The translations under genes and the position numbers were made by a program. The notes beneath the pieces were generated by a model. The model was not told the origin of the DNA, did no database searches, and worked only from the letters and a program-made list of their open reading frames with translations. From the NCBI GenBank assembly GCA_944389385.1, contig CALXMC010000001.1, positions 189,303 to 253,302 on the forward strand: DNA of 64,000 bases, read 5' to 3'. Numbering within the stretch: the first letter of the stretch is position 1; the number at the start of each line of letters is the position of its first letter. The stretch comes from an uncultured Alphaproteobacteria bacterium. Lineage in GTDB: Bacteria; Pseudomonadota; Alphaproteobacteria; Rs-D84. This document shows, one piece after another, positions 3,973 to 41,776 of this stretch.

Positions 3973-4790
3973 TTATATTCTTTTGTCCCATCAAAATCCA
4001 ATACGATAACACGTGACAAAGTATTTGGTGTTACTATACGAACATCTGTATTTTCAATAATTTCACCAACACTGATGCCGTTTGGTAAAATTCCACTGAT
4101 ATTACTTGTAACCAATTTCAGACCAGGCGTTGGTTGAAAACCAGGGTCACTGAATAAACCAACTGTCGGTGTATTTGAACCATTACCCTGTAAAAAACCA
4201 TATACGTCCGTCCCAGCAATACGAACAGCGATATTTGTATTTGTATCAGTCAGTGCCCGCACACGTGAAAACCGTGATGCAACATCGAATATTATACCAA
4301 CCAAATGCCCATCAGTTGAAACAACGACCATACCCTTTTTTAATCCGTGCTGCGCACCTTTGTTGATAAAAAAAGTACTGTGATGAAATGCGGTATTATC
4401 GTATGTAACATCTGCGACAATTGCGCCATTTTGATAAGATTGAACAATGTTCAATTCCTGGGTTAATTTTTGATTTTCTGCAATCGCCACATCGCAAGCG
4501 TTTTTGTTACGCAAAGCCGCATCCAATTGTGCGCGCAGTTCTTCATTTTCAGTCCTTAAATTTGCCAATTCGCGCACATTTTCAATACCGTTACCAATGG
4601 CGCGTACAGGCCATGTTATAACATCACCAACCCAATTTGCGACCGGTAAAACAATATGCGCCAACCCATTCATCAACGCATAGTCAGGCTTTGCAATCAT
4701 TATATATATAAACAACACCGGCAGCACCGCCGCCGCGGCGGCAGATTTTATAATAGTTTTTAATCTGGCAGATGTTTTATTTTGGTTCAT
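3969..4790 (-). CDS. mreC: Rod shape-determining protein MreC
   Basis: 273 aa with N-terminal TM, coiled-coil (RELANLRTENEELRAQLDAALR) and C-terminal beta domain typical of MreC; overlaps mreD by 4 nt. Confidence 0.8.
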   Translation of the reverse strand: MNQNKTSARLKTIIKSAAAAAVLPVLFIYIMIAKPDYALMNGLAHIVLPVANWVGDVITWPVRAIGNGIENVRELANLRTENEELRAQLDAALRNKNACDVAIAENQKLTQELNIVQSYQNGAIVADVTYDNTAFHHSTFFINKGAQHGLKKGMVVVSTDGHLVGIIFDVASRFSRVRALTDTNTNIAVRIAGTDVYGFLQGNGSNTPTVGLFSDPGFQPTPGLKLVTSNISGILPNGISVGEIIENTDVRIVTPNTLSRVIVLDFDGTKEYK

Positions 4791-4865
4791 GGCGTGGTAA
4801 GTTTAGACGTTAAAATCCAGATATTCAATAAAAACTTGATTTTTCATTTAATTATGCCAAAATAA

Positions 4866-4911
4866 CACCTGTGTTAAACGCGCCGAAATGGCACAGGCAT
4901 GCCATCAGGTG
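4866..4911 (+). promoter_or_regulatory. Structured leader upstream of rpmI-rplT (candidate L20 autoregulatory RNA)
   Basis: Nested inverted repeats CACCTGTG…CACAGG, GGCATGCC, CAGGTG immediately upstream of the rpmI SD. Confidence 0.3.
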
Positions 4912-4930
4912 TAATAAAAAAGGATATAAA

Positions 4931-5134
4931 ATGCCAAAATTAAAAACCAAGTCGTACTTGAAAAAGCGCGCATCTATGACTGCGACCGGTAAAATCCGCG
5001 TTGCCAGAAATGCCCACAAAAAACTGTTGCGTAATAAATCCAAGCGTGCAAACAAGGCTGGATCAAAACCACAGTATTTGAACGATAACATGAAGGGACA
5101 GGCGAAAATCTTGGCCCCGTATGGTTTGAAATAA
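4931..5134 (+). CDS. rpmI: 50S ribosomal protein L35
   Basis: MPKLKTKSYLKKRASMTATGKIRVARNAHKKLLRNKSK… typical L35; ATG at 4931 with AAAAGGA SD. Confidence 0.9.
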   Translation: MPKLKTKSYLKKRASMTATGKIRVARNAHKKLLRNKSKRANKAGSKPQYLNDNMKGQAKILAPYGLK

Positions 5135-5150
5135 TTAAAGGGGGCAAGTT

Positions 5151-5519
5151 ATGGCAAGGGTTAAACGCGGTACAACCGTAAAACAAAAACACAATAAAAT
5201 ATTGGCACGTGCCAAGGGTTACCTGGGCCGTCATCATTCGACATATCGTGCCGCCCGTGAAAAAACTGAAAAAGCGGGTCAGTACGCATATCGCGATCGT
5301 CGTGTGAAAAAACGCGAATTTCGTGGTTTGTGGATTGTGCGTATCAACGCCGCAGCGCGTGCAAATGGTATGACATACAGCCAATTCATGAATGGCCTGA
5401 AACGGGCCGGTGTTGCATTGGATCGCAAAGTATTGGCCGAAATGGCGTATGCAGGCGATGCAAACTTTGCAAAATTGGTTGAAACAGCAAAACGATTTAC
5501 TGCCGCGGATGCTAAATAA
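5151..5519 (+). CDS. rplT: 50S ribosomal protein L20
   Basis: [24 protein letters not shown]…[29 protein letters not shown]… canonical L20. Confidence 0.95.
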
Positions 5520-5551
5520 GCCTTGGCGGTTGGTACTTTATTTTGTATTAT

Positions 5552-5583
5552 AAAGCCGTCAAACGACGGCTTTATGTTTTTAT
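5552..5583 (+). terminator. Hairpin plus T-tract between rplT and pheS (terminator or attenuator)
   Basis: AAAGCCGTCAAACGACGGCTTT followed by ATGTTTTT. Confidence 0.45.
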
Positions 5584-5599
5584 AACATGGGGTAATGTT

Positions 5600-6547
5600 A
5601 TGCAGAATCAGATAAAAAACGTAAAAACATTGGAAGAATTGCAGTCTTTATACACTGCAACTTTCGGAAAAAATGGCACTATGACGGCCAAATTAAAAAA
5701 TATGAAAAATTTGGATAATGATGCACGTGCCGAATTAAATCGTGAAAACGCTGAATTGCGCGAATTATTCAAATCGCGCCAGACGGAAATTGAAAATGCG
5801 GTTATGATGGCGGCATTGGAATCCCAGAAATTGGACGCGTCGTTAAATCCATTGCCTGAAAATCGTGGCACTTTGCACCCATTAACAACTGCGCTGGCGG
5901 ATATATCTTCTATCCTTGAATCTTTCGGATACGAAATGTGGGTCGGCCCAGAAATCGAAGATGATTGGCATAACTTTACGGCATTAAATACCCCGGAATA
6001 TCATCCTGCCCGTGATATGCAAGACTCGTTTTTCTTGGAAAACGGCAACGTTATGCGTACGCAAACATCCGCCATTCAAATCCGCAGTATGGAACGCGTT
6101 GGCGCACCAATAAAAATGTTTGGCATTGGTGCCACATATCGCAAAGAAATGGATGCGACACACGGCCCAATGTTTCATCAAATCGAAGGTTTATACATAG
6201 ATAAAAACATCACTATGTCTGATTTGTTTGCCGATGTGCGCGAATTTTTGAAACGATTTTTTGAAATGGATGATATTAAATTACGTATTCGGCCGTCTTA
6301 TTTCCCATTTACTGAACCCAGTATAGAAATCGATATGATGTGGCGTGATAATAAATGGTTGGAAATCATGGGTGCAGGTATGGTACATCCAAATGTGTTG
6401 CGTAATTGTGGTATAAATCCAGATGAGTATCAGGGTTTTGCTTTTGGTTTTGGTTTGGACAGACTTGCGATGTTAAAGTACGGCCTGAACGACATACGTC
6501 AATTGTATGATGGTGATGTGCGCTGGCTGCAAAAAACAGGTTTTTAA
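5600..6547 (+). CDS. pheS: Phenylalanine--tRNA ligase alpha subunit
   Basis: Class II aaRS motifs (…FPFTEPSIEIDMMW…GFAFGFGLDRLAMLKYG…); start at MQNQIKN; upstream ORF extension rejected. Confidence 0.93.
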   Translation: MQNQIKNVKTLEELQSLYTATFGKNGTMTAKLKNMKNLDNDARAELNRENAELRELFKSRQTEIENAVMMAALESQKLDASLNPLPENRGTLHPLTTALADISSILESFGYEMWVGPEIEDDWHNFTALNTPEYHPARDMQDSFFLENGNVMRTQTSAIQIRSMERVGAPIKMFGIGATYRKEMDATHGPMFHQIEGLYIDKNITMSDLFADVREFLKRFFEMDDIKLRIRPSYFPFTEPSIEIDMMWRDNKWLEIMGAGMVHPNVLRNCGINPDEYQGFAFGFGLDRLAMLKYGLNDIRQLYDGDVRWLQKTGF

Positions 6548-6562
6548 TTACGGGGGCGAAAA

Positions 6563-8866
6563 ATGAAATGGACTTATGATTGGTTAAAAGATTATCTGGA
6601 AACAGACATGTCGGCCCAGCAAATTGCCGATACATTAACCCGTACTGGATTGGAAGTCGAAGATTTATCCGTGCCAACTGCACCAATTGCGGCAAAAATC
6701 GTTGAATGTACACCAATGGACGGCAGTGACCATCTGCATATTTTACAGGTCGATGATGGTTCGGGTACATTGCGCCAGGTTGTCTGTGGCGCGCCAAACG
6801 CGCGTGTTGGGTTGGTGTCTGCGTTGGCTTTACCGGGCTGTATAATTGACGGGCATGAAATTCACGCCGGCAAATTGCGTGGCGTTATGTCAAACGGCAT
6901 GATGTGCAGCGCGCGTGAATTGGGCATCGGCGACGACCACAGCGGAATTATTGAATTGGACGCGAATACAAAAATCGGTTCGCCTGTATTGAATATGGAA
7001 ACGGTTTTTGATGCAGGAATAACGCCAAATCGGCCCGATTATTTGGCGGTGCGCGGGATTGCGCGTGACCTGGCGGCATGTGGGGCCGGCAAATACATTG
7101 CGCCGAATGATACCGAATTAAAACCGGTAAAATCGGCACGCAGTGTAAATATCAAAACGGATAAATGCCCCGTGTATCAGTTCTGTGAAATTCATGGAAT
7201 CACCGTTTCAGACAGCACACCGAAAATAAAATCGCGTCTGGGGGCAATTGGGATAAATCCGAAAAACGCGCCGGTCGATACAACAAATTATATTTGTTAT
7301 GACATGGGGCAGCCGATGCACTGTTTTGATGCAGACGAAATCCATGGCGATATAACTGTACGCATGGCGACATCTGGTGAAAAATTTACAGACTTGTTCG
7401 GTGCCGAACATACTTTGTGTGAAACCGATATGGTAATTGCCGACGATGCAGGTATATTGGCATTGGCGGGTGTGGTTGGTGGCGCACGCGGTATGACAAC
7501 CGAAAAAACAAAAAATATTATCTTGGAAAGTGCTTATTTTAACCCGGTATCAGTTCGTAAAACCGCAAAACGTTTGGGAATATTAACTGATTCTTCATAT
7601 CGTTATGAACGTGGTATTGACCCGACTATAACCGGGATTGCGCTGGCGCGCGCGGCGGATATTATAATGGATGCCTGTGGTGGCGAAATTGTTGGAACTG
7701 GATTGGGTGGCGAATTGCCAACTGAAAACCGCAGCATTGAATACACGCCTGATTTGTTCAAAATAAAAACAGGTGTTGATATGTCGGCTGAAACCCAACG
7801 TGAAATTTTGGAAAATTTGGGATTTGTTGTCACAACACATGGCGATGTGTGGAAAATAACACCCCGCCCTGCCCGCGTGGATGTTGTGATTGCAGAAAAT
7901 ATAATTTCCGAACTTATTCGTATTTACGGATATGATAACATTGCAAATACAGCCAAACACACACCATCGGATTCTGCGCCGTATAATGATTATTTTATGC
8001 GCTTTAAGCATGAATTGGCATCGCGTGGCTTGAACGAGGCAAAATCATTCGGGTTCGGAAATTCAGAAATTGAACAAATAGTGTCTGATAAACCAATTGT
8101 TCGTATATCAAACCCAATAACAAAAGATATGGATACTGCGCGTAATAATTTGTTGGGCAATATGTTGTTATTCGCGCGTAACAATGAAAAGCGCGGATAC
8201 CCAGATTTGAATTTGTTTGAATTGGGAACTGTGTTTGATGGGGATACGCCAAACGCGCAACATACACAAATTTGTATTGTTCGCACAGGCGATATTGCGC
8301 CACGCCATTGGACGCATCGTAATCGCGCCACAGACATTTATGATGTCAAAGCGGACTTGATTGCATTGCTGCATGGACAAAACTTTACAATTGCATCGGA
8401 TAACCCGCCACGTTGGGCGCATCCGTTCAGATATGGCGCGGTGATGCAGGGCAAAAAAAAGATTGCTGAATTTGGACAGTTACATCCGTCTGTTGCACGT
8501 GCGTTAAAGATAAAAACAAATGTTAATATCGCGATAGTTGATGATGTTGAAAACTTGCCGGGAATTCGCAAAGTTCATGAACCGAAATTGTCTGAATTTC
8601 AACCGATAACGCGTGATTTTGCGTTCGTTGTGGATTCGGCAACGCCGGCTGAAAAATTAACATCTGTCGCGCGATGTGCTGATTCGCGTATAACAGATGT
8701 TGTTGTATTTGACGCATTTGATTTGACGGATGGAAAAAAATCGATTGCATTTACTGTAACGATTACACCAACCGACAAAATGTCTGACACAGATTTGCAA
8801 AAATTACAAACAGATGTCATTGAAAATGTAGAAAAGAAATGTAACGCAAAAATTCGTGATAAATAA
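6563..8866 (+). CDS. pheT: Phenylalanine--tRNA ligase beta subunit
   Basis: 767 aa; N-terminal tRNA-binding domain (VVCGAPNARVGLV), B3/4 and B5 regions, FDX-ACB C-terminus; immediately follows pheS. Confidence 0.93.
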   Translation: MKWTYDWLKDYLETDMSAQQIADTLTRTGLEVEDLSVPTAPIAAKIVECTPMDGSDHLHILQVDDGSGTLRQVVCGAPNARVGLVSALALPGCIIDGHEIHAGKLRGVMSNGMMCSARELGIGDDHSGIIELDANTKIGSPVLNMETVFDAGITPNRPDYLAVRGIARDLAACGAGKYIAPNDTELKPVKSARSVNIKTDKCPVYQFCEIHGITVSDSTPKIKSRLGAIGINPKNAPVDTTNYICYDMGQPMHCFDADEIHGDITVRMATSGEKFTDLFGAEHTLCETDMVIADDAGILALAGVVGGARGMTTEKTKNIILESAYFNPVSVRKTAKRLGILTDSSYRYERGIDPTITGIALARAADIIMDACGGEIVGTGLGGELPTENRSIEYTPDLFKIKTGVDMSAETQREILENLGFVVTTHGDVWKITPRPARVDVVIAENIISELIRIYGYDNIANTAKHTPSDSAPYNDYFMRFKHELASRGLNEAKSFGFGNSEIEQIVSDKPIVRISNPITKDMDTARNNLLGNMLLFARNNEKRGYPDLNLFELGTVFDGDTPNAQHTQICIVRTGDIAPRHWTHRNRATDIYDVKADLIALLHGQNFTIASDNPPRWAHPFRYGAVMQGKKKIAEFGQLHPSVARALKIKTNVNIAIVDDVENLPGIRKVHEPKLSEFQPITRDFAFVVDSATPAEKLTSVARCADSRITDVVVFDAFDLTDGKKSIAFTVTITPTDKMSDTDLQKLQTDVIENVEKKCNAKIRDK

Positions 8867-8870
8867 ACAC

Positions 8871-8901
8871 AAAAAAACACCGGCATTTGCCGGTGTTTTT
8901 T
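8871..8901. terminator. Bidirectional intrinsic terminator, member of the CACCGGCAAATGCCGGTG hairpin family
   Basis: AAAAAAACACCGGCATTTGCCGGTGTTTTTT between convergent pheT and nth. Confidence 0.7.
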
Positions 8902-8910
8902 AATGTTTTT

Positions 8911-9573
8911 TTATACTGTTTTATCCGGCGCATTACACCAACGTGCAACCGGACATTCGCCGCATTTTGGTCGCAGTGCACGACAAATATAACGGCCATG
9001 TAAAACCATTACATGATTTACAATTGGATGATATTTTTTTGGAATGATTTTTAATAATTGTTCCTCGACTTTTTCTGGGGTATTTGCATCGGCCCCAACC
9101 CAAGCATACCGATGTGCATTGCGGAAAACGTGAGTATCAACACCTATGTTTGGCGCACCCCATAAAACATTCATTATAACATTTGCGGTTTTTTGCCCGA
9201 TGCCCGGCAATTTCATCAAAGCATCTCGATTATGATATTTTTTTGGAAATTTATAATTATCATCCGCACCATTTGTATCATTCATTAACGCCGCCGCCAA
9301 CCCCATGATACTTTTTGCCTTGTTGTTAAAGAAAGACAGTACACGAATGTGTCGCTTTAATCCATCTTCGCCCAATGCAATCATTTTAGCGGGCGACGGG
9401 GCGACGCGGAATAATTCGGGTGTGACCTCGTTTACTTTTTTATCGGTTGCCTGGGCGGATAAAATAACCGCCACAGCAAATGTGAATTCATTCACAGAAT
9501 ACAACTCCGACCGGATTGACATATCAACCACGGTCGGGACATGTGTGAAATAAATATCGGGCGTCAAAGTCAT
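8911..9573 (-). CDS. nth: Endonuclease III (DNA glycosylase/AP lyase, 4Fe-4S)
   Basis: HhH-GPD motif (LMKLPGIGQKTANVIMNVLWG) and C-terminal CX6CX2CX5C cluster; start at MTLTPDIYF (9573), long upstream extension rejected. Confidence 0.88.
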   Translation of the reverse strand: MTLTPDIYFTHVPTVVDMSIRSELYSVNEFTFAVAVILSAQATDKKVNEVTPELFRVAPSPAKMIALGEDGLKRHIRVLSFFNNKAKSIMGLAAALMNDTNGADDNYKFPKKYHNRDALMKLPGIGQKTANVIMNVLWGAPNIGVDTHVFRNAHRYAWVGADANTPEKVEEQLLKIIPKKYHPIVNHVMVLHGRYICRALRPKCGECPVARWCNAPDKTV

Positions 9574-9574
9574 T

Positions 9575-9958
9575 TTAATCCGCAAAAACAAACCCAGCCA
9601 AACGCCCTTCGCACAAAGTCTGGCAATTTGCCGAACATTCGTTACGAACTGCATCTTCACTGTCACCACTGATTTCGACGGTATCAACCCATACATTTTC
9701 ATGGGTTGCGTCGGACGCAAAGCATAAACAGCGTGATGTATATTGTTTTGATTCCTGGCGTTCGTCACGAACCACCTGGCCATCGACGGTTGCGAAACTG
9801 GCCGAATAACTTTCAGATACACCAATACCCGCACATTGTGATGTTATTACAACGTCGCGTTCTGCGGCATCCAATGTACCGACATAGAACCCAACCATGA
9901 ACACCAACAACATACCGATAACGCCTGCCATCCAATGCAACGAACTGTGTATATGCAT
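9575..9958 (-). CDS. Hypothetical small membrane-anchored Cys-rich protein (127 aa)
   Basis: Strong SD (AAGGAGG, 7 nt before ATG); N-terminal TM helix then a domain with 7 Cys (…RCLCF…ECSANCQTLCEG…); packed between ileS stop and nth start. Confidence 0.55.
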   Translation of the reverse strand: MHIHSSLHWMAGVIGMLLVFMVGFYVGTLDAAERDVVITSQCAGIGVSESYSASFATVDGQVVRDERQESKQYTSRCLCFASDATHENVWVDTVEISGDSEDAVRNECSANCQTLCEGRLAGFVFAD

Positions 9959-9972
9959 AATATCCTCCTTTT

Positions 9973-12900
9973 TTATGCTTTTTCGATATTAACAGACAAA
10001 TCATAACCCTCGATGGATGTATTATACACCCCGTTTTCATTTTGCGACATATTTTTTATCAACGCGTCACGCATAATACGATCACGGTGTTGTTCAATAG
10101 CCGCCGCCAAAGCAGGCGCAGCACTGTATGTCATGTTAATACGGTCAGACACATCCAAACCGATTGCTTTGCGCGTGTCTTGGATAAAACGCAACGCGTC
10201 ATTTGCCAAACCTTCGGCAACCAATTCAGAATTTATTTCTGTATCCAACACAACCACGGCGGTGTTGTCGGGCAACGATGCACCAGTCACACCATCGCGC
10301 ACAGTCAAGCGATTTTCAAATTCGTCCGCGTTCAATGTGTATTCACCGACATCCAGTGTATTGCCCGAAATCGTGTATTCACCGCGTTTTACCGCCGGTA
10401 TAATTTCGCGCAACGCCCCACCCAATCGCGCACCAATTTTTGGCGTAATCAGATATACGAACGCATCCGCGACATCACTGTAACTGTCCGTAAATTCGAC
10501 GGATTTAACATTTAATTCGTCGCGAATAATATCGCTGTACGCGGATAAATCAGTTCCCGCCACAGTCAATTTTGCCAACGGCAAACGATTACGCAATTTA
10601 TATTGTTCGCGCAATTGTTTTCCGACGGATACAATCATTTGTACGCGCCGCATATCATCAACAATTTTTTTGTCGTATTGCGCGGCGGTCGGGAACGATT
10701 GCAAATGTACACTTTCCCCGCCGGTTAAATTGCGATAAATATAATCAGATATAAACGGCGCAAACGGTGCCAACGCGCGGCATAAATTTGTCAAAACATG
10801 ATACAGTGTATCAAACGCATCCTGGTCTTCGTCCCAGAAACGCGCGCGCCCGCGGCGGATATACCAATTGTTTAACACATCCAGAAATCGTACGAATTCT
10901 TTTATCGCCGCGTCTGGTTTGTATTCGTCCAGCGCATTTCCAACAACGGCGACCAATTCGTTTAATTCTGCAATTATGTATTTATCCAGTGCATTATCGG
11001 ACGCGCCCGCATCGTGTGCGGTAATATTGCCCGCGTTCGCATACAGTGTAAAGAAATGGTACGCGTTCCACAATGGGGTCAAAATAGTTTTTGTTGATTC
11101 AGCAAAAACGCGGCCCTCTTTATCAACGGGAACTGGTTCGGCCTTCATAAAATTAGACCCCTGGATAAACAGACGAATTGCGTCCGCACCGAATTGTTCT
11201 ATTTGTTGTTCCGGGTTCACAAAGTTTTGCAATGATTTTGAAAACTTCTTTTTGTTTTCGTCAACAACCATACCGTTTGCGGAAACCGTCTTGAACGCCG
11301 GGCTGTCAAACAAAGCCGTCGCCAAGACCATCAAAGAATAAAACCAACCACGCGTTTGATCTTGGCCTTCGATAATATAATCTGCCGGGAAAGTATCTGC
11401 AAATTTATCGGCATTTTCGAACGGATAATGCAGTGACGCCCACGGCATAGACCCAGATTCCACCCAACAATCCAAAACATCTGGAATGCGTGTCCATCCG
11501 TCTTTGGTTAATTTATCCAACGTCGGCCGATGCAGGTCATCTACCTTTTCGCCAAAGAAATCTTCAATTTCCGCAACCGAACCAAACACTTTATATTCGC
11601 CGTCTTTTTCCCATATCGGCAGTGGCGTTCCCCAAAAACGATTGCGTGACACAGACCATGGGCGTGCGCCTTCTATCCACGTGCGGAAACGCTCGCCGGC
11701 CGAAGTCCAATGCACTTTGTTATTATTTGCAATCAGTTTTTCGCGGATTTTTGGCACATCTATATACCAAGAATCAGTCGCGCGATAAATTAACTTTTCC
11801 TTGCTGCGCGGGCTGTATGGATAACTGTGCTTGTGCTGTTCTTTTTTCACCAGATGTCCATTTTCACGCAGATGCTGGATTATTTTTGGATTGGCAACGA
11901 ATATATTTTCGCCGGCCCAATCACGCACAGTTTCATCAAAGTTTCCATAACTATCAACATTTAACAAAACCGGGAATTTTGGGTCGATATTTTTCGCCGC
12001 CCAAAAATCGTCTTCGCCGTACGCGGGCGCTATATGCACGATTCCGGTACCGTCCGCATCCGATACATAATCAGCGGGTATGATTTTATATAACAAATCA
12101 GACGTGCCCGCATAGTAATCAAACAACGGTGTATAACGCAAACCAACCAATTCAGTCCCCATAACTGTACCGATTTTTTCTGCGTTTTCGAATTGTTTTG
12201 CATACGCGGCCAGTCGCGATTCAGCAATGATATATACCGCGCCATCACTGTCACGCATACGCAGATATTTCATATTTGGATTTACCGCCAGCGCAGAATT
12301 TGCCGGCAATGTCCATGGCGTTGTTGTCCATGCCAACGCGCGATCGCCTGTTTCCAATTCAAACCAGACTGTAATTGCATCATCAACAACATCCATATAT
12401 TCACTGGATGCCTCGGAATTGGATAACACGGTCCCCAATTTCCAATCATATGGATTAACGCGAAAATCTTTGTATAACAGCCCGCGGTTATATAATTCTT
12501 TGACCGCCCATATAACAGATTCCATGTAATTTTTATCCATGGTGCGATAACCATAACCGTCACCCACATCAACCCAGCGACCTATGCGTTCGATAAAGCG
12601 TTCCCATTCATGTGTATAAGTCAAAACATCTTTGCGACACATATCGCAAAAAGCGGCAATTCCATCGGTTGCGACAATATCTTTGGCCTGGCGTCCTTGC
12701 TTTTTTTCAACCGAGATTTCGGCCGGCAAACCATGGCAATCCCACCCCAGTTCGCGCACAACATGGCGACCACGCATAGTTTGATAACGCCCAACCATAT
12801 CTTTGACGGCGGACACACCTAAATGCCCCCAGTGCGGCAAACCATTACCAAACGGTGGCCCGTCATAGAATGAAAACGGATGTCCCAATTTTGTTTTGTT

Positions 12901-17616: not shown

Positions 17617-18186
17617 TTATCTGACGGGCACGATTTTGTCGATGTTTTTTACTTTGTCTGTATCGCGCCGCATTGAAAACTCGCACCCACAGTATTTTTG
17701 CCGATAAAAATCAGACGCACGATTTATCTCGCACCGCAACCCCTCGTCCCATTTAATGGGAATGTATTGGTCAGACAAAGCGGAATACCCTGCTCTATCT
17801 ACTTGGGATTGGTCTTTGTGGCGTGATACCCCGAATACAGACGTAACCGCATCATAACCATGCTCGGCCGCCCACCGGCGCGCGTATTCAAATCTGAATT
17901 TGAAACACGCGCTGCACCGCACACCGCGTTCGGGGGCATCTTCCATCCCGCGTACTGCGTCGCGCCATGCCGCGTGGTCATATTCGCCGATGGCATATTT
18001 TACCCCCATTTTTTCACAGTACCGTATTTGTTCTGCCAATCGTTTATCATATTCGGCGGCCGGGAAAATATTTGGGTTAAAAAACAACACAATAAAATCA
18101 TCCACCCCAGGGATTTGCCCGTCGGCCAGTTGTTTTATCGCGCCCGCGCTGCACGGCGCACAGCAAGACATTAAAACCAGTTTCAT
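17617..18186 (-). CDS. queH: Epoxyqueuosine reductase QueH (DUF208)
   Basis: MKLVLMSCCAPCS…FFNPNI…C..C…GCEFS Cys motifs typical of QueH; overlaps metG stop by 4 nt. Confidence 0.75.
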   Translation of the reverse strand: MKLVLMSCCAPCSAGAIKQLADGQIPGVDDFIVLFFNPNIFPAAEYDKRLAEQIRYCEKMGVKYAIGEYDHAAWRDAVRGMEDAPERGVRCSACFKFRFEYARRWAAEHGYDAVTSVFGVSRHKDQSQVDRAGYSALSDQYIPIKWDEGLRCEINRASDFYRQKYCGCEFSMRRDTDKVKNIDKIVPVR

Positions 18187-20192: not shown

Positions 20193-20218
20193 GTGTTTAT
20201 ACCTTTTATTAAAACAAT

Positions 20219-20242
20219 ATGGGCGCCCAACGGGGCGCCCAG
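20219..20242 (-). promoter_or_regulatory. GC-rich perfect hairpin in metG 5' leader
   Basis: TGGGCGCCC-AACG-GGGCGCCCA about 28 nt upstream of the metG ATG. Confidence 0.3.
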
Positions 20243-20320
20243 GAATCCCGTCAGAAATTTTGATTAAGATTATTTATACATTCGCATCATTTTTTATAAC
20301 TTTATTTTTTATTATACCTT

Positions 20321-20418
20321 GTGGCTTGCCACCCGAAGCATTCCGTGAATGGGCAACTTACAACCAAATAGCCCTGCGAATAGGTGGCTTGCCACCCGAA
20401 GCGTTTCGCGAAGGGTGG
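20321..20418. repeat. Two direct repeats of about 33 bp flanking or overlapping the 3' end of tRNA-Val(GAC)
   Basis: GTGGCTTGCCACCCGAAGCATTCCGTGAATGGG (20321-20353) and GTGGCTTGCCACCCGAAGCGTTTCGCGAAGGGTGG (20384-20418). Confidence 0.6.
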
Positions 20419-20492
20419 TGGGTGGTATTGGACTCGAACCAACGACCTTTACGATGTCAACGTAACGCTCTAACCAACTGAGCTAACCACCC
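20416..20492 (-). tRNA. tRNA-Val (anticodon GAC)
   Basis: Reverse complement GGGTGGT-TA-GCTCAGTTGGTTAGAGC-G-TTACG TTGACAT CGTAA-AGGTC-GTTGGTTCGAGTCCAAT-ACCACCC-A-CCA. Confidence 0.85.
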
Positions 20493-20526
20493 AAAACCGT
20501 TTCCTGGTGATTTGTCCATGAAACCA

Positions 20527-20577
20527 GCGACCTTTACGATGTCAACGTACGCGGCTTACCAACTGAGCTAACCACCC
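20527..20577 (-). pseudogene. Partial duplicate (5' about 50 nt plus upstream flank) of tRNA-Val(GAC)
   Basis: GGGTGGTTAGCTCAGTTGGTAAGCCGCGTACGTTGACATCGTAAAGGTCGC matches the intact tRNA through the anticodon arm and then diverges (no T-arm or acceptor 3' half). Confidence 0.6.
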
Positions 20578-20760
20578 AAAACTATTACAAAGCGCACAAA
20601 TTATACCAAACAAATTTCAGATTGCAATATTAAATTGTTTTTATTCGGCTTTATTCGATTAAAACACACATTTGACTTTGTCATTCCCAGGCGACGTGTC
20701 GCGTGGGTGATTGGGGCGTGTGTGTGGGGAAATACGTGACTAGTCACTTAGTCCCTTAAC

Positions 20761-20947
20761 TTGTCATTCCCGCGCCCGGGGTCCCCGCAAATACGAACGT
20801 ATTTGTGGGGTGGTTAAGGCGGGAATAGGGTCTATTAAATTTGTTATGTGGATTACATATAAATAAAAACACAACGCTGAATTATTCCCCTGATTAAATA
20901 ACTAATAACAACCCAAGCCCTATTCCCGCCTGCGCGGGAATGACAAA
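20761..20947. mobile_element. MITE-like element with 15-bp perfect terminal inverted repeats and nested internal palindromes
   Basis: TTGTCATTCCCGCGC … GCGCGGGAATGACAA termini; inner IR GGCGGGAATAGGG/CCCTATTCCCGCC; internal hairpin CCCCGCAAATAC-GAAC-GTATTTGTGGGG; right end reads ATTCCC-N8-GGGAAT. Confidence 0.5.
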
Positions 20948-20970
20948 CATAGTAAATACGTGATTATATT

Positions 20971-21291
20971 TTATACATCGACCATATTTTTTATATATTC
21001 ATCCAGCCCGACGGCCAAATCATCCCAATTGGGATTCATTGTTTCTATTAACCTATATTTCCAAGCGCGATTCCATTTTTTTAATATCTTTTCGCGTTTT
21101 ATAGCGTCGTCTATGTATTTGTAATGTTCAAAATATGCCAACTTATCAATTTTATGTGTTTTTGTATATCCGCGAATTAACCCCATTTTATGTTCTATCA
21201 TACGGCGTTCCAGATTATTTGTAACGCCAATATAGGTTGCCTTGGCGCGTTCATTAAATAATATATAAACCCAGAAATGATATTCTTTCAT
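20971..21291 (-). CDS. GIY-YIG nuclease family protein (YhbQ/UPF0213-like small endonuclease)
   Basis: …YHFWVYILFNERAKATYIGVTNNLERRMIEHKMG…YTKTHKIDKLAYFEHYKYIDDAIKREKILKKW… GIY-YIG pattern; an alternative upstream start at 21327 is possible. Confidence 0.65.
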   Translation of the reverse strand: MKEYHFWVYILFNERAKATYIGVTNNLERRMIEHKMGLIRGYTKTHKIDKLAYFEHYKYIDDAIKREKILKKWNRAWKYRLIETMNPNWDDLAVGLDEYIKNMVDV

Positions 21292-21363
21292 ATAATACAG
21301 AGTATAAAAAATACTCTTATATAACAATAATTTTAGTTCATAAATATAACGAAAATTTTTAAC

Positions 21364-21393
21364 AAAAACACCGGCGATTGCCGGTGTTTTTTT
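21364..21393. terminator. Bidirectional intrinsic terminator (CACCGGC…GCCGGTG family)
   Basis: AAAAACACCGGCGATTGCCGGTGTTTTTTT between the GIY-YIG gene and accC. Confidence 0.65.
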
Positions 21394-22750
21394 ATTTCTT
21401 TTCTTTTTCAGATTTCAAATAAGATTCCAACCAATGATTATCAAAATTCAGCGTTTTTACATCGCGATTTTTTAATAATTTTTGCTGTAACGGAATCGTT
21501 GTTTTTACGCCTTCGATAACAAATTCGTCCAACGCACGTGTTGCACGCATTATGCACGCCGGCCGCGACGGCGCATGCACAATCAATTTTGCAATCATAG
21601 AATCGTATGTCGGCGGAATAGTGTATCCTGTATAAACGGCACTATCCACGCGCACGCCCATCCCACCCGACGGCGCATACAGCGTTATTTTGCCCGGATT
21701 TGGGATAAAGTTTTCTGGGTCTTCGGCATTTATGCGGAATTCAATCGCATGACCGTGTGGAACGACATTAGATTGCGTATATCCCAATTTTTCACCGGCC
21801 GCGACGCGAATCTGTTCGCGCACCAAATCAACACCATAAACCATTTCAGTAACAGGATGTTCAACCTGCAAACGCGTATTCATTTCCAAGAAATAAAATT
21901 TGCCATCTTCGAACATAAATTCGAACGTACCCGCATTGACATATCCCATTTTTTTTGCGGCGTTTTTACAGATTTCAATCATATCGTCGCGCTGTTTCTG
22001 GGTCAGAATTGCGGCGGGGCATTCCTCCATAACTTTTTGATTTTTGCGTTGCAGCGAACAATCGCGTTCGCCAAAAATCACAACATTGCCATGTGTATCG
22101 CCCAATACCTGGAATTCAATATGACGCGGATGCAACAATAATTTTTCCATATACAGTGTATCATCGCCGAATCCAGATTTAGCCTCGTTCTTTGTCATTT
22201 GAAACGCTTCGGCCATCTGGTCGGCATTCATAACCGGACGAATGCCGCGCCCACCGCCACCTGCGGCGGCCTTTAACATAACGGGATAACCGATTTTTTC
22301 GGCCCACGCATACGCATCTTCCAACGTTTCAACCGCGCCATCAGACCCCGGCACAACGGGCAATCCGCATTCGATAGCGGTGCGTTTTGCATTAACTTTA
22401 TCGCCCATTTTTTCAATCATGGCGGCCGACGGCCCAATCCAGATTAAACCATGTTGTTCAACTTTCTGGGCAAAATCTGCACGTTCGGATAAAAATCCGT
22501 AACCCGGGTGAATTGCGTCCGAATTGGTCAATAACGCCGCGGTTAAAATCGCAGATTCATTCAGATAAGAATCCTTGCTGGGGCCCGGACCGATACACAC
22601 AGATTCGTCCGCCAATTGTACATGCATGGCGTTTTTATCGATGGTTGAATATACTGCAACCGTGCGAATACCCATATCGCGGCACGCGCGAATAATACGC
22701 AGCGCGATTTCCCCGCGATTGGCAATCAAGACTTTTTTTATTTGAGACAT
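21392..22750 (-). CDS. accC: Acetyl-CoA carboxylase biotin carboxylase subunit
   Basis: MSQIKKVLIANRGEIALRIIRACRDMGI… ATP-grasp, 452 aa. Confidence 0.93.
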   Translation of the reverse strand: MSQIKKVLIANRGEIALRIIRACRDMGIRTVAVYSTIDKNAMHVQLADESVCIGPGPSKDSYLNESAILTAALLTNSDAIHPGYGFLSERADFAQKVEQHGLIWIGPSAAMIEKMGDKVNAKRTAIECGLPVVPGSDGAVETLEDAYAWAEKIGYPVMLKAAAGGGGRGIRPVMNADQMAEAFQMTKNEAKSGFGDDTLYMEKLLLHPRHIEFQVLGDTHGNVVIFGERDCSLQRKNQKVMEECPAAILTQKQRDDMIEICKNAAKKMGYVNAGTFEFMFEDGKFYFLEMNTRLQVEHPVTEMVYGVDLVREQIRVAAGEKLGYTQSNVVPHGHAIEFRINAEDPENFIPNPGKITLYAPSGGMGVRVDSAVYTGYTIPPTYDSMIAKLIVHAPSRPACIMRATRALDEFVIEGVKTTIPLQQKLLKNRDVKTLNFDNHWLESYLKSEKEKK

Positions 22751-22758
22751 TTTTTTAA

Positions 22759-23211
22759 TTATTCAATAACAATAATCGGTTGATCGAATTCCACGGCTTG
22801 GCCATCGGAAACCAAGATTTCTTTTACCACGCCGTCTTTATCAGATTTAATCGGGTTAAATGTTTTCATGGCCTCGATTAAAGCGACCGTATCGCCGGCC
22901 TTGATTTGTGCGCCGACCGATGTAAATGGCTTTGCGCCGGGCTCCGGGGCCAAATAAGCAACGCCCACCATTGGCGATTTTAACGCATAACCATTAACGG
23001 CATTTTCGCCGCCGGCCGGTTCGCTGTTTGTGTTTTTGGATTCAGCCGCCACCGGAAAATTCGGCATAGCAACGGCGGCCGCCTGCTGTTTAGACAGGTG
23101 AATATGTTTGCGATAAACGCCAAACAAAAACTGGCGTTCCAAATCCAATTCAGTAATCCCCATTTCATCCATTATTTTCGACATAGACTCAACGGTTGCA
23201 CGAAATGACAT
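22759..23211 (-). CDS. accB: Acetyl-CoA carboxylase biotin carboxyl carrier protein
   Basis: C-terminal biotinyl domain …ALIEAMKTFNPIKSDKDGVVKEILV…; directly upstream of accC. Confidence 0.88.
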   Translation of the reverse strand: MSFRATVESMSKIMDEMGITELDLERQFLFGVYRKHIHLSKQQAAAVAMPNFPVAAESKNTNSEPAGGENAVNGYALKSPMVGVAYLAPEPGAKPFTSVGAQIKAGDTVALIEAMKTFNPIKSDKDGVVKEILVSDGQAVEFDQPIIVIE

Positions 23212-23306
23212 TTTTAATCCTTTGTTATATATCCATACTTTCTTTTATATCAGAATTTGTCCTGAATTTCAACGTAACTGAAATTCTAGCACAATCGGCG
23301 CGCATG

Positions 23307-23543
23307 TCAAGGAACGGGATCATACCCAAATCCACCGCCCGGTCGACAGCGTAAAATTCGTCGCAATCCCATAATTGTCCCGCGCCAAACACCATATTTT
23401 GCGATTGCAGTTGCGGTATATTCGCTGCACGTTGGGGTAAATCGGCACGCCGCGCGCCCACCAATAAATGGTGATATGCACAATTGGTACATTCGCACCA
23501 ACGATACAGCTATCTTTTGAAAAATGTTATTTTTTTGTCGCAT
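23307..23543 (-). CDS. yidD: Membrane protein insertion efficiency factor YidD
   Basis: …YQLCISPFIGGRAACRFTPTCSEYTATAIAKYG…RCRPGGGFGYDPVP DUF37 signature; overlaps rnpA 3' end. Confidence 0.85.
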   Translation of the reverse strand: MRQKNNIFQKIAVSLVRMYQLCISPFIGGRAACRFTPTCSEYTATAIAKYGVWRGTIMGLRRILRCRPGGGFGYDPVP

Positions 23544-23871
23544 TTAATTTTTTGATATATGCCAAAGCCTTGCGCATGGCGGTACGCCCCGCATCGCGGG
23601 TCGCATTCAATATGCCGTGACGTGCAACGAAAACATAATCCAGGTTGTCGCACAACAAATCTTCGTGATGCCGAATCCAATCACGCAGCAAACGTTTTGC
23701 CCGATTGCGATGCACCGCCAATTTGAACGTGCGCTTTGTCGCGGTAATTCCATATCGCGCGTCGCCTGGGAATTTAGTCGGCATTCCACGCACATAGAAA
23801 AATTCACTTTGCGCGTTTATATCATTTTCACCCAGCAAAAAATCTTCATGTTTTTTAATAGTATTTCGCAT
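23527..23871 (-). CDS. rnpA: Ribonuclease P protein component
   Basis: 114 aa basic protein with RnpA motif (…KLAVHRNRAKRLLRDWIR…); yidD immediately downstream; no rpmH seen upstream. Confidence 0.8.
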   Translation of the reverse strand: MRNTIKKHEDFLLGENDINAQSEFFYVRGMPTKFPGDARYGITATKRTFKLAVHRNRAKRLLRDWIRHHEDLLCDNLDYVFVARHGILNATRDAGRTAMRKALAYIKKLNATKK

Positions 23872-23912
23872 AACGACGGTAATATTACCATAATATCGGC
23901 ATAATCAAATAA

Positions 23913-25055
<1,143 letters not shown>

Positions 25056-25058
<3 letters not shown>

Positions 25059-25088
25059 AAAAAACACCGGCAAATGCCGGTGTTTTTT
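25056..25088. terminator. Bidirectional intrinsic terminator (AACACCGGCAAATGCCGGTGTT)
   Basis: A8-CACCGGCAAATGCCGGTG-T6 between convergent mreB and the ABC permease. Confidence 0.7.
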
Positions 25089-26304
25089 ATTCATAACGTA
25101 AACTGTCAATCGGGTTTAATTTTGCGGCCTTCATTGCCGGCATAACGCCGGACGCCAACCCGACAACCACTGCGACCGTAACGGATACTATTACCGGCCA
25201 CATACTGAACGGCACTTCGTAATCCATTATGAAACGCCCGACACCCTGGGACAGACCAACACCCAATACCAATCCAATCATAGACCCCATAAACGATATC
25301 AAAATCGCTTCGGACAAGAACTGGATGATGATATGTTTTTCGCGTGCGCCAATGGCTTTGCGTATGCCAATTTCGCGCGTGCGTTCCGCAACCGACACCA
25401 ACATCATATTCATAATGCCAATTGATCCCACCAACAGCGACACCGCCGCAATCGCGATTAACAGCATTGTCATATAACCGGTTACGGTATCCATGGCCTC
25501 CATAACTTGTTTCATATCCATAATTTGGAAATCATCGGCTTCGTCATCGGCCAATTTATGCCGGTCGCGCAGCAGTGCGGTTATCTGTTCAATTGCCAAC
25601 GCGTTATCTGCATTATCAGTCAGTTTCAATGTGACCATATTAACCGAGTTTGGAAAACGGCTGCCCTGCAAACGTTTTTTCAGTGTGGTAATTGGGATAA
25701 TAATCATATCGTCCTGGCTGCCCATTGTGGAATCGCCGCGTTCTTTTGTGACGCCGATAATGGTAAAGGGCATATTTTGCACGCGGATAATTTCGCCAAC
25801 TGGGTTTTCAGGCATTTGTAATTCTTCGGCCGTCTGGGGTCCGATAATGGCGTATGTTGAACCATTGCGCACGGCAGACTGATTAAAAAACGTGCCGTAT
25901 TTCATTTCCAGATTTTGCACTTGTTCATAACCTGGGTATGCACCAACCATGGACGTTGCCCAGTTTTGATTACCATAAATAACCTGGGCGGCGGCATTTT
26001 GTACGGGACTGAATGCGGCGACATCGGGCAATTGACCGATGAATTCAGCATCTTGGATAGTTAAAGTTTGTCGATTTCCCGTACGCACCCCCGCGCTTTG
26101 CGCCGCGCCTGCGCGAATCATAATTGTCCCAGTCCCCAAGGACGAAAACTGGTCGCTGATTTGTTTTGACACCGTTTCACCAACTGCAACCATTATCACC
26201 ACGGCCATAACGCCGATAATAATACCCAACACGGTTAAAAAAGAACGAACCTTATTCCCGCTGATGGACAGCCAAGATTCTTTGAAAATATCATTAAAAG
26301 TCAT
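25087..26304 (-). CDS. ABC transporter permease, MacB/FtsX family
   Basis: 405 aa; N-terminal TM, large periplasmic domain, C-terminal FtsX-like 3-TM bundle; downstream of cognate ATPase. Confidence 0.82.
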   Translation of the reverse strand: MTFNDIFKESWLSISGNKVRSFLTVLGIIIGVMAVVIMVAVGETVSKQISDQFSSLGTGTIMIRAGAAQSAGVRTGNRQTLTIQDAEFIGQLPDVAAFSPVQNAAAQVIYGNQNWATSMVGAYPGYEQVQNLEMKYGTFFNQSAVRNGSTYAIIGPQTAEELQMPENPVGEIIRVQNMPFTIIGVTKERGDSTMGSQDDMIIIPITTLKKRLQGSRFPNSVNMVTLKLTDNADNALAIEQITALLRDRHKLADDEADDFQIMDMKQVMEAMDTVTGYMTMLLIAIAAVSLLVGSIGIMNMMLVSVAERTREIGIRKAIGAREKHIIIQFLSEAILISFMGSMIGLVLGVGLSQGVGRFIMDYEVPFSMWPVIVSVTVAVVVGLASGVMPAMKAAKLNPIDSLRYE

Positions 26305-41426: not shown

Positions 41427-41503
41427 GGATGTTTAGCTCAGTTGATTAGAGCATCTCGTTTACACCGAGAGGGTCGGGGGTTTGAGTCCCTCAACATCCA
41501 CCA
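41427..41503 (+). tRNA. tRNA-Val (anticodon UAC)
   Basis: GGATGTT-TA-GCTCAGTTGATTAGAGC-A-TCTCG TTTACAC CGAGA-GGGTC-GGGGGTTTGAGTCCCTC-AACATCC-A-CCA. Confidence 0.85.
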
Positions 41504-41510
41504 CAAAATA

Positions 41511-41538
41511 CAATCGCCCAACGGGCGATTTTATTTTG
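41511..41538 (+). terminator. Intrinsic terminator after tRNA-Val(UAC)
   Basis: AATCGCCCAACGGGCGATTTTATTTTG (same stem as the terminator after rpsO at 63958). Confidence 0.6.
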
Positions 41539-41539
41539 T

Positions 41540-41776
41540 GCATGGGGATGTGGGACGAAAACCCCCGTCGGGGTGTTTGACAATGAGTCAGCGAGCGTTT
41601 TAATAAAACGCGAGTGCAGTACGCGCAAGCGTACGCGAACGAATGCCCCACAGCCGGCGTATCGGCGCCGTGCGAGGGAGTCCCGGGCATCCACCACAAA
41701 ATTTCGTTAGCGAACGCAGTGAGCTTAAGAAATTTTAGTGCCACACGAAGCCTTGTGCGAAGTGTGGCTTTTTTAT
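41540..41776 (+). ncRNA. Candidate small RNA or att-scar region: about 200 nt between two terminators, containing a second copy of the tRNA-Val 3' end
   Basis: CATCCACCACAAAAT (tRNA 3' end plus flank, 41495-41509) repeated at 41689-41703; region ends with hairpin GCCACACGAAGCCTTGTGCGAAGTGTGGC plus T6 (41740-41774); only short overlapping spurious ORFs. Confidence 0.3.

Follow-up and report, generated by a model that had tools for sequence, protein, structure and literature searches.

The 64,000-nucleotide (nt) stretch analysed here (the window; part of contig CALXMC010000001.1 from an uncultured alphaproteobacterium) carries, between accC and the gene for tRNA-Val(GAC), a module that consists of a small GIY-YIG nuclease gene and a set of hairpin repeats, two of which bound a 187-bp palindromic element. 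Along the minus strand the order is accB, accC, the GIY-YIG gene, the element, a tRNA fragment, tRNA-Val, metG and queH (Table 1). A previous sequence-only reading took the place for a hotspot of repeated insertion and excision at the tRNA, and did not link the nuclease and the palindromes as one functional pair. We propose that the two probably belong together as a gene-repeat pair of the Ssn type, the family to which SsnA of Neisseria meningitidis belongs. Loci with which the window was compared are designated by L numbers.

Table 1. Positions of the module, its hairpin units and the neighbouring transcription signals in the window
Feature	Position	Strand	Remarks
Module (ssn-type gene and all hairpin units)	~20635-21359		725 bp
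ssn-type gene, single-domain GIY-YIG nuclease	20971-21291	minus	106 aa; PF01541, E=1.2e-16
187-bp element	20761-20947		perfect 15-nt terminal inverted repeats TTGTCATTCCCGCGC
Hairpin unit A	20918-20947	minus	TTTGTCATTCCCGCGCAGGCGGGAATAGGG; fold as single-stranded DNA -9.1 kcal/mol, z=-3.4
AT-rich core between inverted units	20831-20917		87 bp
Hairpin unit B* (same unit as A, inverse orientation)	20761-20830	plus	fold -17.5 kcal/mol, z=-3.3
Degenerate fourth unit	20677-20711	plus	TTTGTCATTCCC, then divergent hairpin; -9.8 kcal/mol, z=-3.6
accC terminator hairpin	21364-21391		left module boundary just past the hairpin
tRNA promoter	20600-20627	minus	TTGCAA, 16-nt spacer, TG-n-TATAAT; kept in relatives
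Pseudo-tRNA leader	20493-20582	minus	85-nt unit and 5 nt of upstream flank
tRNA-Val(GAC), intact	20416-20492	minus	ARAGORN; Rfam, 71.4 bits
Tandem trailer hairpin repeats	20321-20415	minus	~32 nt; two good copies, degenerate third between them

Results

The nuclease and its hairpin repeats

Gene callers start the nuclease gene at the ATG at 21291 on identical contigs, which we take as the likely start, and the open reading frame can be extended to a TTG at 21327. The PF01541 domain covers residues 18-91 of the product, and the sole other Pfam match, to T5orf172 (E=1.8e-4), falls on the same residues; the protein thus has the size and the single domain of the Ssn family (cd10448; ~90-110 aa, no extra domain), whose N. 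meningitidis member, SsnA, has 94 aa and consists of a single GIY-YIG domain (Chenal et al. 2025, PMC11893778). When the window translation was set against the residue positions published for SsnA (PMC11893778), Y9, Y20 and E67 showed 11/47 spacing identical to that of the catalytic residues Y6, Y17 and E64. A homolog on a viral contig of 66% G+C (L059) is 48% identical to the window protein (E=9e-25) and sits between two exact copies, in inverted orientation, of NTS, the 28-nt repeat that SsnA recognizes. The GIY-YIG domain had been called correctly from the sequence; the accompanying label “YhbQ-like” was imprecise, and we dropped it because the single match to a solved structure, a UPF0213 protein, is weak (E=0.0016).

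SsnA binds NTS, CGTCATTCCCGCGMAVGCGGGAATCYRG, which contains the Neisseria repeat dRS3, only as single-stranded DNA (ssDNA) and cuts a few nucleotides upstream; the C that follows the palindrome is the base most important for binding (PMC11893778). The window holds a single ATTCCC-N8-GGGAAT site, ATTCCCGCCTGCGCGGGAAT at 20922-20941 (0 in 100 shuffles of the 64 kb), and this palindrome is, as first suggested from the sequence, the dRS3/NTS sequence of Neisseria, with the same N8 sequence. It lies in hairpin unit A, whose 23-nt core GTCATTCCCGCGCAGGCGGGAAT is identical to the NTS core (consensus from PMC11893778), with the cleavage-governing GTC immediately upstream of the palindrome included. 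Aligned by hand with CGTCATTCCCGCGMAVGCGGGAATCYRG, unit A has three mismatches (positions 1, 25 and 26) and an identical central 23 nt; the base after the palindrome is A (flank AGGG) in the window unit and C in the published NTS.

The 187-bp element has the perfect terminal repeats and nested inner palindromes ascribed to it at the outset: a perfect 14-nt inner inverted repeat at 20817-20830 and 20918-20931, and an inner hairpin at 20783-20810. At the end opposite unit A, a 41-nt insert (20776-20816), which forms a hairpin of its own, separates the arms of unit B* (20761-20775 and 20817-20830) at their tip. A local deletion that fused two units was dropped as the sole reading of B*, as the same form is found in other genomic copies (L149, L163, L191). 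As ssDNA the hairpin units form an 8-bp stem with a 4-nt loop (-8.8 to -9.1 kcal/mol, z -3.4 to -4.1), and the whole element folds as one long hairpin (-42.4 kcal/mol, z=-6.5). We found no promoter-like site in the 87-bp core.

Gene callers stretch or invent open reading frames across hairpin units: the Ssn homolog P0141 is given a C-terminal tail reading ...CHSREGGN, and a 43-aa frame is called at positions 1842-1973 of L254. Such tails and peptides are annotation artefacts that mark the hairpin repeat family.

Association of gene and repeats and dispersal of the element

Scanning species-representative genomes with a 26-mer that includes AGG returned at least 109 stretches, with 30 assemblies among the matches listed. 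Almost all listed matches are metagenome-assembled genomes (MAGs) titled Alphaproteobacteria, Rickettsiales or Candidatus Enterousia; the remainder are titled solely “proteobacterium”, “Proteobacteria bacterium” or “bacterium”, and several isolate names among the listed matches point to the gut (Hadza human, roe-deer cecum). The AGGG variant of the repeat is clade-specific.

An ssn homolog is present in 20 of the 109 stretches listed, at a single locus per assembly in 20 of the 30 assemblies, and usually lies 30-230 bp from a hairpin unit. As a stretch covers no more than 8 kb, and the genomes are assumed to measure ~1.5-2 Mb, we estimate that fewer than one such co-occurrence would be expected by chance among the listed stretches. 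The suspicion that GIY-YIG genes recurrently adjoin such units is thus borne out, and the association has been published: related hairpins (SRM) flank Ssn homologs across bacteria, in many cases on both sides, and the gene-repeat association is reported for 71% of homologs (PMC11893778). The strict SRM pattern has 24 matches among the 109 related stretches listed. Two layouts recur at the associated loci: a unit, ssn and an inverted unit within ~400 bp (L152, L184, L222, L228, L237, L240, L250; larger arrays in L142), which is the NTS-ssn-NTS order; and ssn followed by unit, core and unit, as in the window (L136, L159, L201, L206, L211, L251).

The element is also dispersed. Locus L176, from the MAG BRZ_AB__bin14, is 96.5-98% identical in nucleotide sequence to the window over 7.5 kb, and the MAG therefore represents the window's species; the whole element is present in 6/6 of the stretches from this MAG, so that it has at least six copies, each with unit A and a homologous 87-bp core, closed by unit B in plain form (145 bp in all) or by B* (187 bp). 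In the related MAG BRZ_PP__bin55, a unit with a homologous core occurs in 11/11 stretches. The element cores of the two MAGs are 76-89% identical to the window copy, a divergence that indicates old copies rather than a recent burst. With terminal inverted repeats and multiple dispersed copies, the element resembles a miniature inverted-repeat transposable element (MITE), as had been claimed, and its terminal repeat is not unique in the genome, given the at least six copies; neither a target duplication at the module boundary nor a transposase that could be its parent was seen. It likewise has the make-up of a REPIN: two inverted REP units less than 130 bp apart, hairpin-forming and present in many copies. 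The element is thus a dispersed MITE- or REPIN-like repeat in the window species and its relatives.

Rearrangements among strains

On contigs encoding an identical or 99%-identical Ssn, the gene always lies between accC and tRNA-Val, and the hairpin array takes five forms. S1 (L013, L014) reads A, core, B, a 24-nt spacer and C*, where C* is the unit with the insert; S2 (L012) is S1 with the core reverse-complemented; in S3 (L252-L255) everything between the outer half-arms of A and C* is inverted; S4 (the window, L011) reads A, core, B*; and S5 (L010, L015, L176) is S4 with the core reverse-complemented. Alignment and blastn orientation agree that the 87-bp core is the exact reverse complement in L010, L012, L015 and L176, and the S3 inversion, 205 bp long and bounded by the outer half-arms, is identical to the S1 segment at 197/206 positions after reverse-complementing. 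Relating the five forms takes at least three inversions and one deletion of ~49 bp.

These changes separate closely related strains: L013 (S1) and L012 (S2) have opposite core orientations and differ at 7/1800 positions of the upstream and 12/1000 of the downstream flank, and one haplotype group holds S3, S4 and S5. Every form goes with a strain haplotype and came out identically in independent samples, which argues against assembly error and equally against rapid phase switching. A second clade, in which Ssn is 85% identical, likewise contains species with different orientations of the core relative to ssn.

Several contigs of the window species (L003, L004, L254, L256) end inside the tRNA/pseudo-tRNA repeat or inside a hairpin unit, and the exact Ssn protein is mostly found on contigs shorter than 2 kb (longest carrier <2 kb in 61/145 collection blocks); both observations fit assembly breaks at dispersed or duplicated sequences. 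Two scans of JGI metagenome contigs, with a locus-specific 40-mer and a unit-core 35-mer, gave no match.

Probable loss and other positions of the module

The module is missing from L008, whose MetRS is 98% identical to that of the window: 21 unrelated nt, sharing no 8-mer with the 725 bp, stand between the accC terminator and the tRNA promoter. The accC flank of L008 is nearest to those of the module-bearing L012 and L013 (9 and 13 differences, respectively), which points to loss of the module and not to gain. It is likewise absent from L005 (MetRS 92%). Together with the inversions and the ~49-bp deletion, these absences substantiate the earlier supposition that the structure of the locus varies between relatives.

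In other species the module is found elsewhere, between tRNA-Cys and tRNA-Val(TAC) (L136), between tsaE and yebC (L142) and beside tRNA-Thr (L198, L222), and in L201 and L206 it is inverted relative to tRNA-Val and metG. It stands repeatedly at synteny breakpoints in relatives. The identity of Ssn to these relatives (85-86%) is near that of MetRS (~80-84%), which fits a long vertical residence with local rearrangement.

The surroundings of the locus also differ in L005, where the block mreB-rnpA-accB-accC (4000-10000, compared with 20200-26000 of the window) is inverted; its neighbours there are infC, a UDG-family gene and an OmpA-family gene, and in the window an ABC transporter gene and macB. 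The terminator hairpin AAAAACACCGGCAA(T/A)CGCCGGTGTTTTT follows mreB in L005, not accC.

The tRNA-Val(GAC) transcription unit and its neighbours

ARAGORN and Rfam both confirm the intact tRNA-Val(GAC) that had been read from the sequence. The partial tRNA copy upstream of it is also real, and is longer than the 50 nt first given: 61 nt (20522-20582), 89% identical to 20437-20497, which comprise the 5' part of the tRNA as far as the beginning of the T arm and 5 nt of upstream sequence. The copy belongs to a pseudo-tRNA leader unit that has the 5' part of tRNA-Val, a broken D stem and another hairpin replacing the T arm; neither ARAGORN nor Rfam calls it a tRNA, and its fold is no better than that of shuffled sequence (z=-0.7). 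Relatives carry no copy (L005, L137, L138, L159, L251), one (the window species, L136, L201) or two (L211), and the unit retains its own diagnostic differences from the true tRNA in species down to ~80% MetRS identity; the L136 copy lies at 8633-8717. The leader is present in L008, which lacks the ssn module, and the two are therefore independent. The leader may be a decaying duplicate that unequal exchange keeps in step, or may serve some role once processed.

On the other side of the tRNA, the direct repeats noticed in the sequence-only reading exist with slightly altered bounds: they are 32 nt long, not 33 (20321-20352 and 20384-20415, 88% identical), and the second borders on the tRNA 3' end without overlapping it. 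Each repeat ends in CCAC(C), resembling the tRNA 3' end, and the CCACC-like 3' segment pairs with GGGTGG. Copy number among relatives ranges from 0 to 3, with one copy in L014 and three clear tandem copies in L005. Tandem Repeats Finder called no array in 20200-21000, and Rfam at gathering thresholds found four tRNAs and nothing else in the window, leaving the trailer repeats unmatched. The distal repeats of Escherichia coli tyrT (rtT) are 178-bp tandem repeats directly 3' of the tRNA, each containing tRNA 3'-terminal bases. The trailer repeats alone resemble them in being tandem, in lying directly 3' of a tRNA gene and in carrying its 3'-terminal bases; they differ in length (~32 nt vs. 178 bp), in having no Rfam match and in varying between 0 and 3 copies among relatives. 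Leader unit and trailer repeats are tandem modules of the tRNA-Val transcription unit, unrelated to the ssn module, and unequal exchange between repeated copies probably accounts for their variation in number.

Four further observations concern the neighbouring genes. A GC-rich hairpin with a T-rich tail, TGGGCGCCCCGTTGGGCGCCCA TATTGTTTTA (20220-20241, minus strand), lies 28 nt upstream of the metG start and is kept in every relative examined, including L005, L136 and L201; it may be an attenuator, or the terminator of the tRNA transcript. In L251, tRNA-Val(GAC) seems to be without its 3' acceptor strand, reading ...TCCAATACCAGCGTAAAAAAT, and the trailer repeats are missing too; the cause is either a truncated tRNA or an error of assembly. 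The other tRNA-Val of the window, tRNA-Val(TAC) at 41427-41503, adjoins an insert of ~190 bp (41489-41700) between 15-nt direct repeats CATCCACCACAAAAT, with the 3' end of the tRNA itself as the first repeat; the insert is tiny and geneless and is present in the window and L138, and L136 is uninterrupted. Site-specific integration at a tRNA 3' end classically leaves such a footprint. Finally, queH encodes 189 aa in the window and 362 aa in L010, L011, L014 and L176 of the same species, owing to a 536-bp indel relative to the window near 17770-17786, at the queH 3' end; the additional portion has matches to DUF559 and MTES_1575 (Vsr-like endonuclease domains), and is a second small nuclease gene coming and going in the neighbourhood.

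Discussion

Homology of the protein, identity of the repeat core with that of NTS and adjacency of gene and repeat in 20 assemblies make it likely that the GIY-YIG gene and the palindromic element constitute one functional pair of the Ssn/SRM type. As such, the pair adds a member to a family published in 2025; its 3' flank is a variant one and its packaging REPIN-like. By analogy with SsnA, the protein would bind its cognate hairpin only in single-stranded DNA and cut a few nucleotides upstream, and the nick would be expected just 5' of the unit, a few nucleotides 5' of GTCATTCCC, on one strand; the single-stranded hairpins would probably form during replication, repair or DNA uptake. The putative cognate repeats lie directly downstream of the gene, where the doublet is predicted to fold into a long hairpin. 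As any two of the units make up a near-perfect inverted repeat, the DNA that they enclose could be flipped or deleted, and the module could be lost as a whole; such events would yield the isomers found among strains.

The flips and the 49-bp deletion probably arose by recombination or template switching between the near-identical arms, since the crossovers must lie within the arms and SsnA cuts outside the unit. The nuclease is for this reason not an obvious cause of the flips. The bolder proposal that Ssn nicks drive copying of the doublet, shufflon-like flipping and excision of the module, which would make the locus a new kind of mobile or invertible DNA, we regard as unlikely, and we are just as doubtful that such Ssn-driven copying is a GIY-YIG-based counterpart of the REPIN-RAYT system.

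Several observations weigh against the Ssn assignment or against a part for the nuclease in the rearrangements. The C critical for binding in SsnA assays (PMC11893778) is replaced by A in the window unit, and as a result the published NTS (at most one mismatch) and SRM patterns have no match in the window; the SRM pattern fails solely at this base, for without its 3' flank it matches unit A. The AGGG flank occurs in 0/180 instances of the canonical 23-mer from viral contigs. The protein was likened to SsnA indirectly, through its residue spacing and the L059 homolog as a bridge. SsnA as published cuts outside the unit, whereas the inversions must have crossed over in the arms; the isomers are fixed in strain lineages; and neither a target-site duplication nor a clean empty site that would back transposition was seen when the L008 site was inspected.

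Compared with the published Ssn systems, in which SsnA was characterised biochemically and to which we liken the window protein from its sequence, the locus differs in further respects: in the window the gene is followed by both units, which enclose a conserved 87-bp core; one of the units has a hairpin insert at its tip; and in the window species it is the doublet, core included, that is dispersed as a repeat. The authors who described Ssn noted the layout of a gene between repeats, like that of an insertion sequence, without evidence of mobility, and natural inversion and deletion isomers such as those documented here are undescribed in their paper (PMC11893778). A further likeness is that the bacteria richest in the repeats are often plant or animal symbionts.

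If the doublets were REPINs copied by a single-copy RAYT transposase (HUH/Y1) encoded elsewhere, the GIY-YIG gene would be merely adjacent. The element does fit the definition of a REPIN and occurs in diverged multi-copy populations, and Bertels and co-workers have already treated the Neisseria 21-mer ATTCCCGCGCAGGCGGGAATC as the REP of REPINs mobilised by the RAYT NMAA_0235. However, an ssn homolog lies beside the units in 20/30 assemblies listed, and SsnA binds NTS biochemically (PMC11893778); moreover, tblastn with IS200 TnpA and an E. coli RAYT as queries gave nothing better than E=0.1 in ~2.1 Mb of loci, which include 720 kb from the relevant MAGs and the window. This search is weak, because the query sequences were approximate and because the ~2.1 Mb cover the genome incompletely. 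Beyond the gene, which is a GIY-YIG nuclease and not an HUH/Y1 transposase, the spacer sets the element apart: its core is conserved from copy to copy, in contrast to the variable spacers described for REPINs. What the two systems have in common are extragenic, diverged, multi-copy pairs of inverted units less than 130 bp apart, adjoining a single-copy gene that is apparently vertically inherited and flanked by the same units. We consider it quite unlikely that a RAYT accounts for the element in this way; the REPIN-RAYT and Ssn explanations are mutually compatible.

The finding that a segment between inverted repeats occurs in both orientations, through three different inversions between three inverted units among near-identical strains and with varying orientation in a second clade too, could suggest a programmed switch in which a recombinase flips the segment and toggles a neighbouring gene. 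In invertons and small hairpin-loop inversions, DNA is flipped between short inverted repeats, and the perfect 14-29-bp repeats found here, with both orientations among close relatives, look much the same. Yet there is no recombinase gene nearby, the core contains no promoter-like site or coding end, the neighbouring genes have their own promoter, the same core recurs at many unrelated loci, and each isomer is haplotype-linked and identical across several samples. An inverton or shufflon is thus very unlikely, and the strain-fixed pattern looks like evolutionary rearrangement rather than phase variation.

We find it most improbable of all that the gene is a free-standing homing endonuclease which spreads through double-strand cuts at empty sites, with the palindromes as unrelated terminators. 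Such a gene would be expected to come and go between strains, as this one does, and the T5orf172 match and a sub-threshold match to a group I intron endonuclease (20 bits vs. a cut-off of 56), the only NCBIfam match, lean the same way. However, the protein is a bare catalytic domain of 106 aa without a DNA-binding extension, the flank differences of L008 suggest loss and not gain, the agreement between Ssn and MetRS identities fits vertical descent, and the palindromes accompany the gene across different genomic contexts.

The idea from which the sequence-only reading started, that repeats, tRNA fragment and nuclease gene are scars of insertion and excision at an integration hotspot, draws on the presence or absence of the module among close strains, on its position at synteny breakpoints in relatives and on the insert at tRNA-Val(TAC). 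For tRNA-Val(GAC), it is largely refuted. An integrative element that targets tRNAs would bring an integrase and be bracketed by direct repeats of the tRNA 3' end, and we found neither: no integrase or recombinase gene is called within 10 kb, and the module stops short of the tRNA, upstream of its promoter, where att-like repeats are lacking. From the tRNA a 5' part has been duplicated, and not the 3' part that would make an att-type copy; this piece occurs in 0-2 copies even in species of ~80-84% MetRS identity; the 32-nt repeats are tandem and bracket nothing. Hairpin units lie within 300 bp of a tRNA in 10/150 cases against 5.05 expected, which is not significant (the maximum was 13 in 200 randomisations to positions within the same stretches). 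We therefore judge an integration hotspot highly improbable, and retain the reading of gene and repeats as an Ssn-type pair.

In Neisseria, NIMEs are intergenic mosaic elements in which RS segments are bounded by dRS3. Like them and like dRS3, the units here bracket short segments with palindromes, and are intergenic and found at rearrangement breakpoints. Unlike dRS3, they belong to a lineage that differs at the phylum level, namely uncultured gut Alphaproteobacteria with MAG titles Candidatus Enterousia or Rickettsiales; they are sparse, with one site in 64 kb and at least six stretches in a MAG vs. hundreds in Neisseria; and no link with integration of filamentous prophages was seen.

The Ssn family was described only in 2025. 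The locus provides a natural series within one uncultured gut species, comprising a dispersed doublet, presence or absence of the module and at least three flips between inverted units among strains that differ by ~1-2% in their flanks, and thereby makes it testable whether Ssn repeats promote local genome rearrangement. The variant with A in place of C should be useful for studies of Ssn specificity and matters for annotation, as the published SRM pattern misses a whole clade of such repeats. The relevance of these findings is mainly to research on Ssn, on REP-like repeats and on bacterial microevolution.

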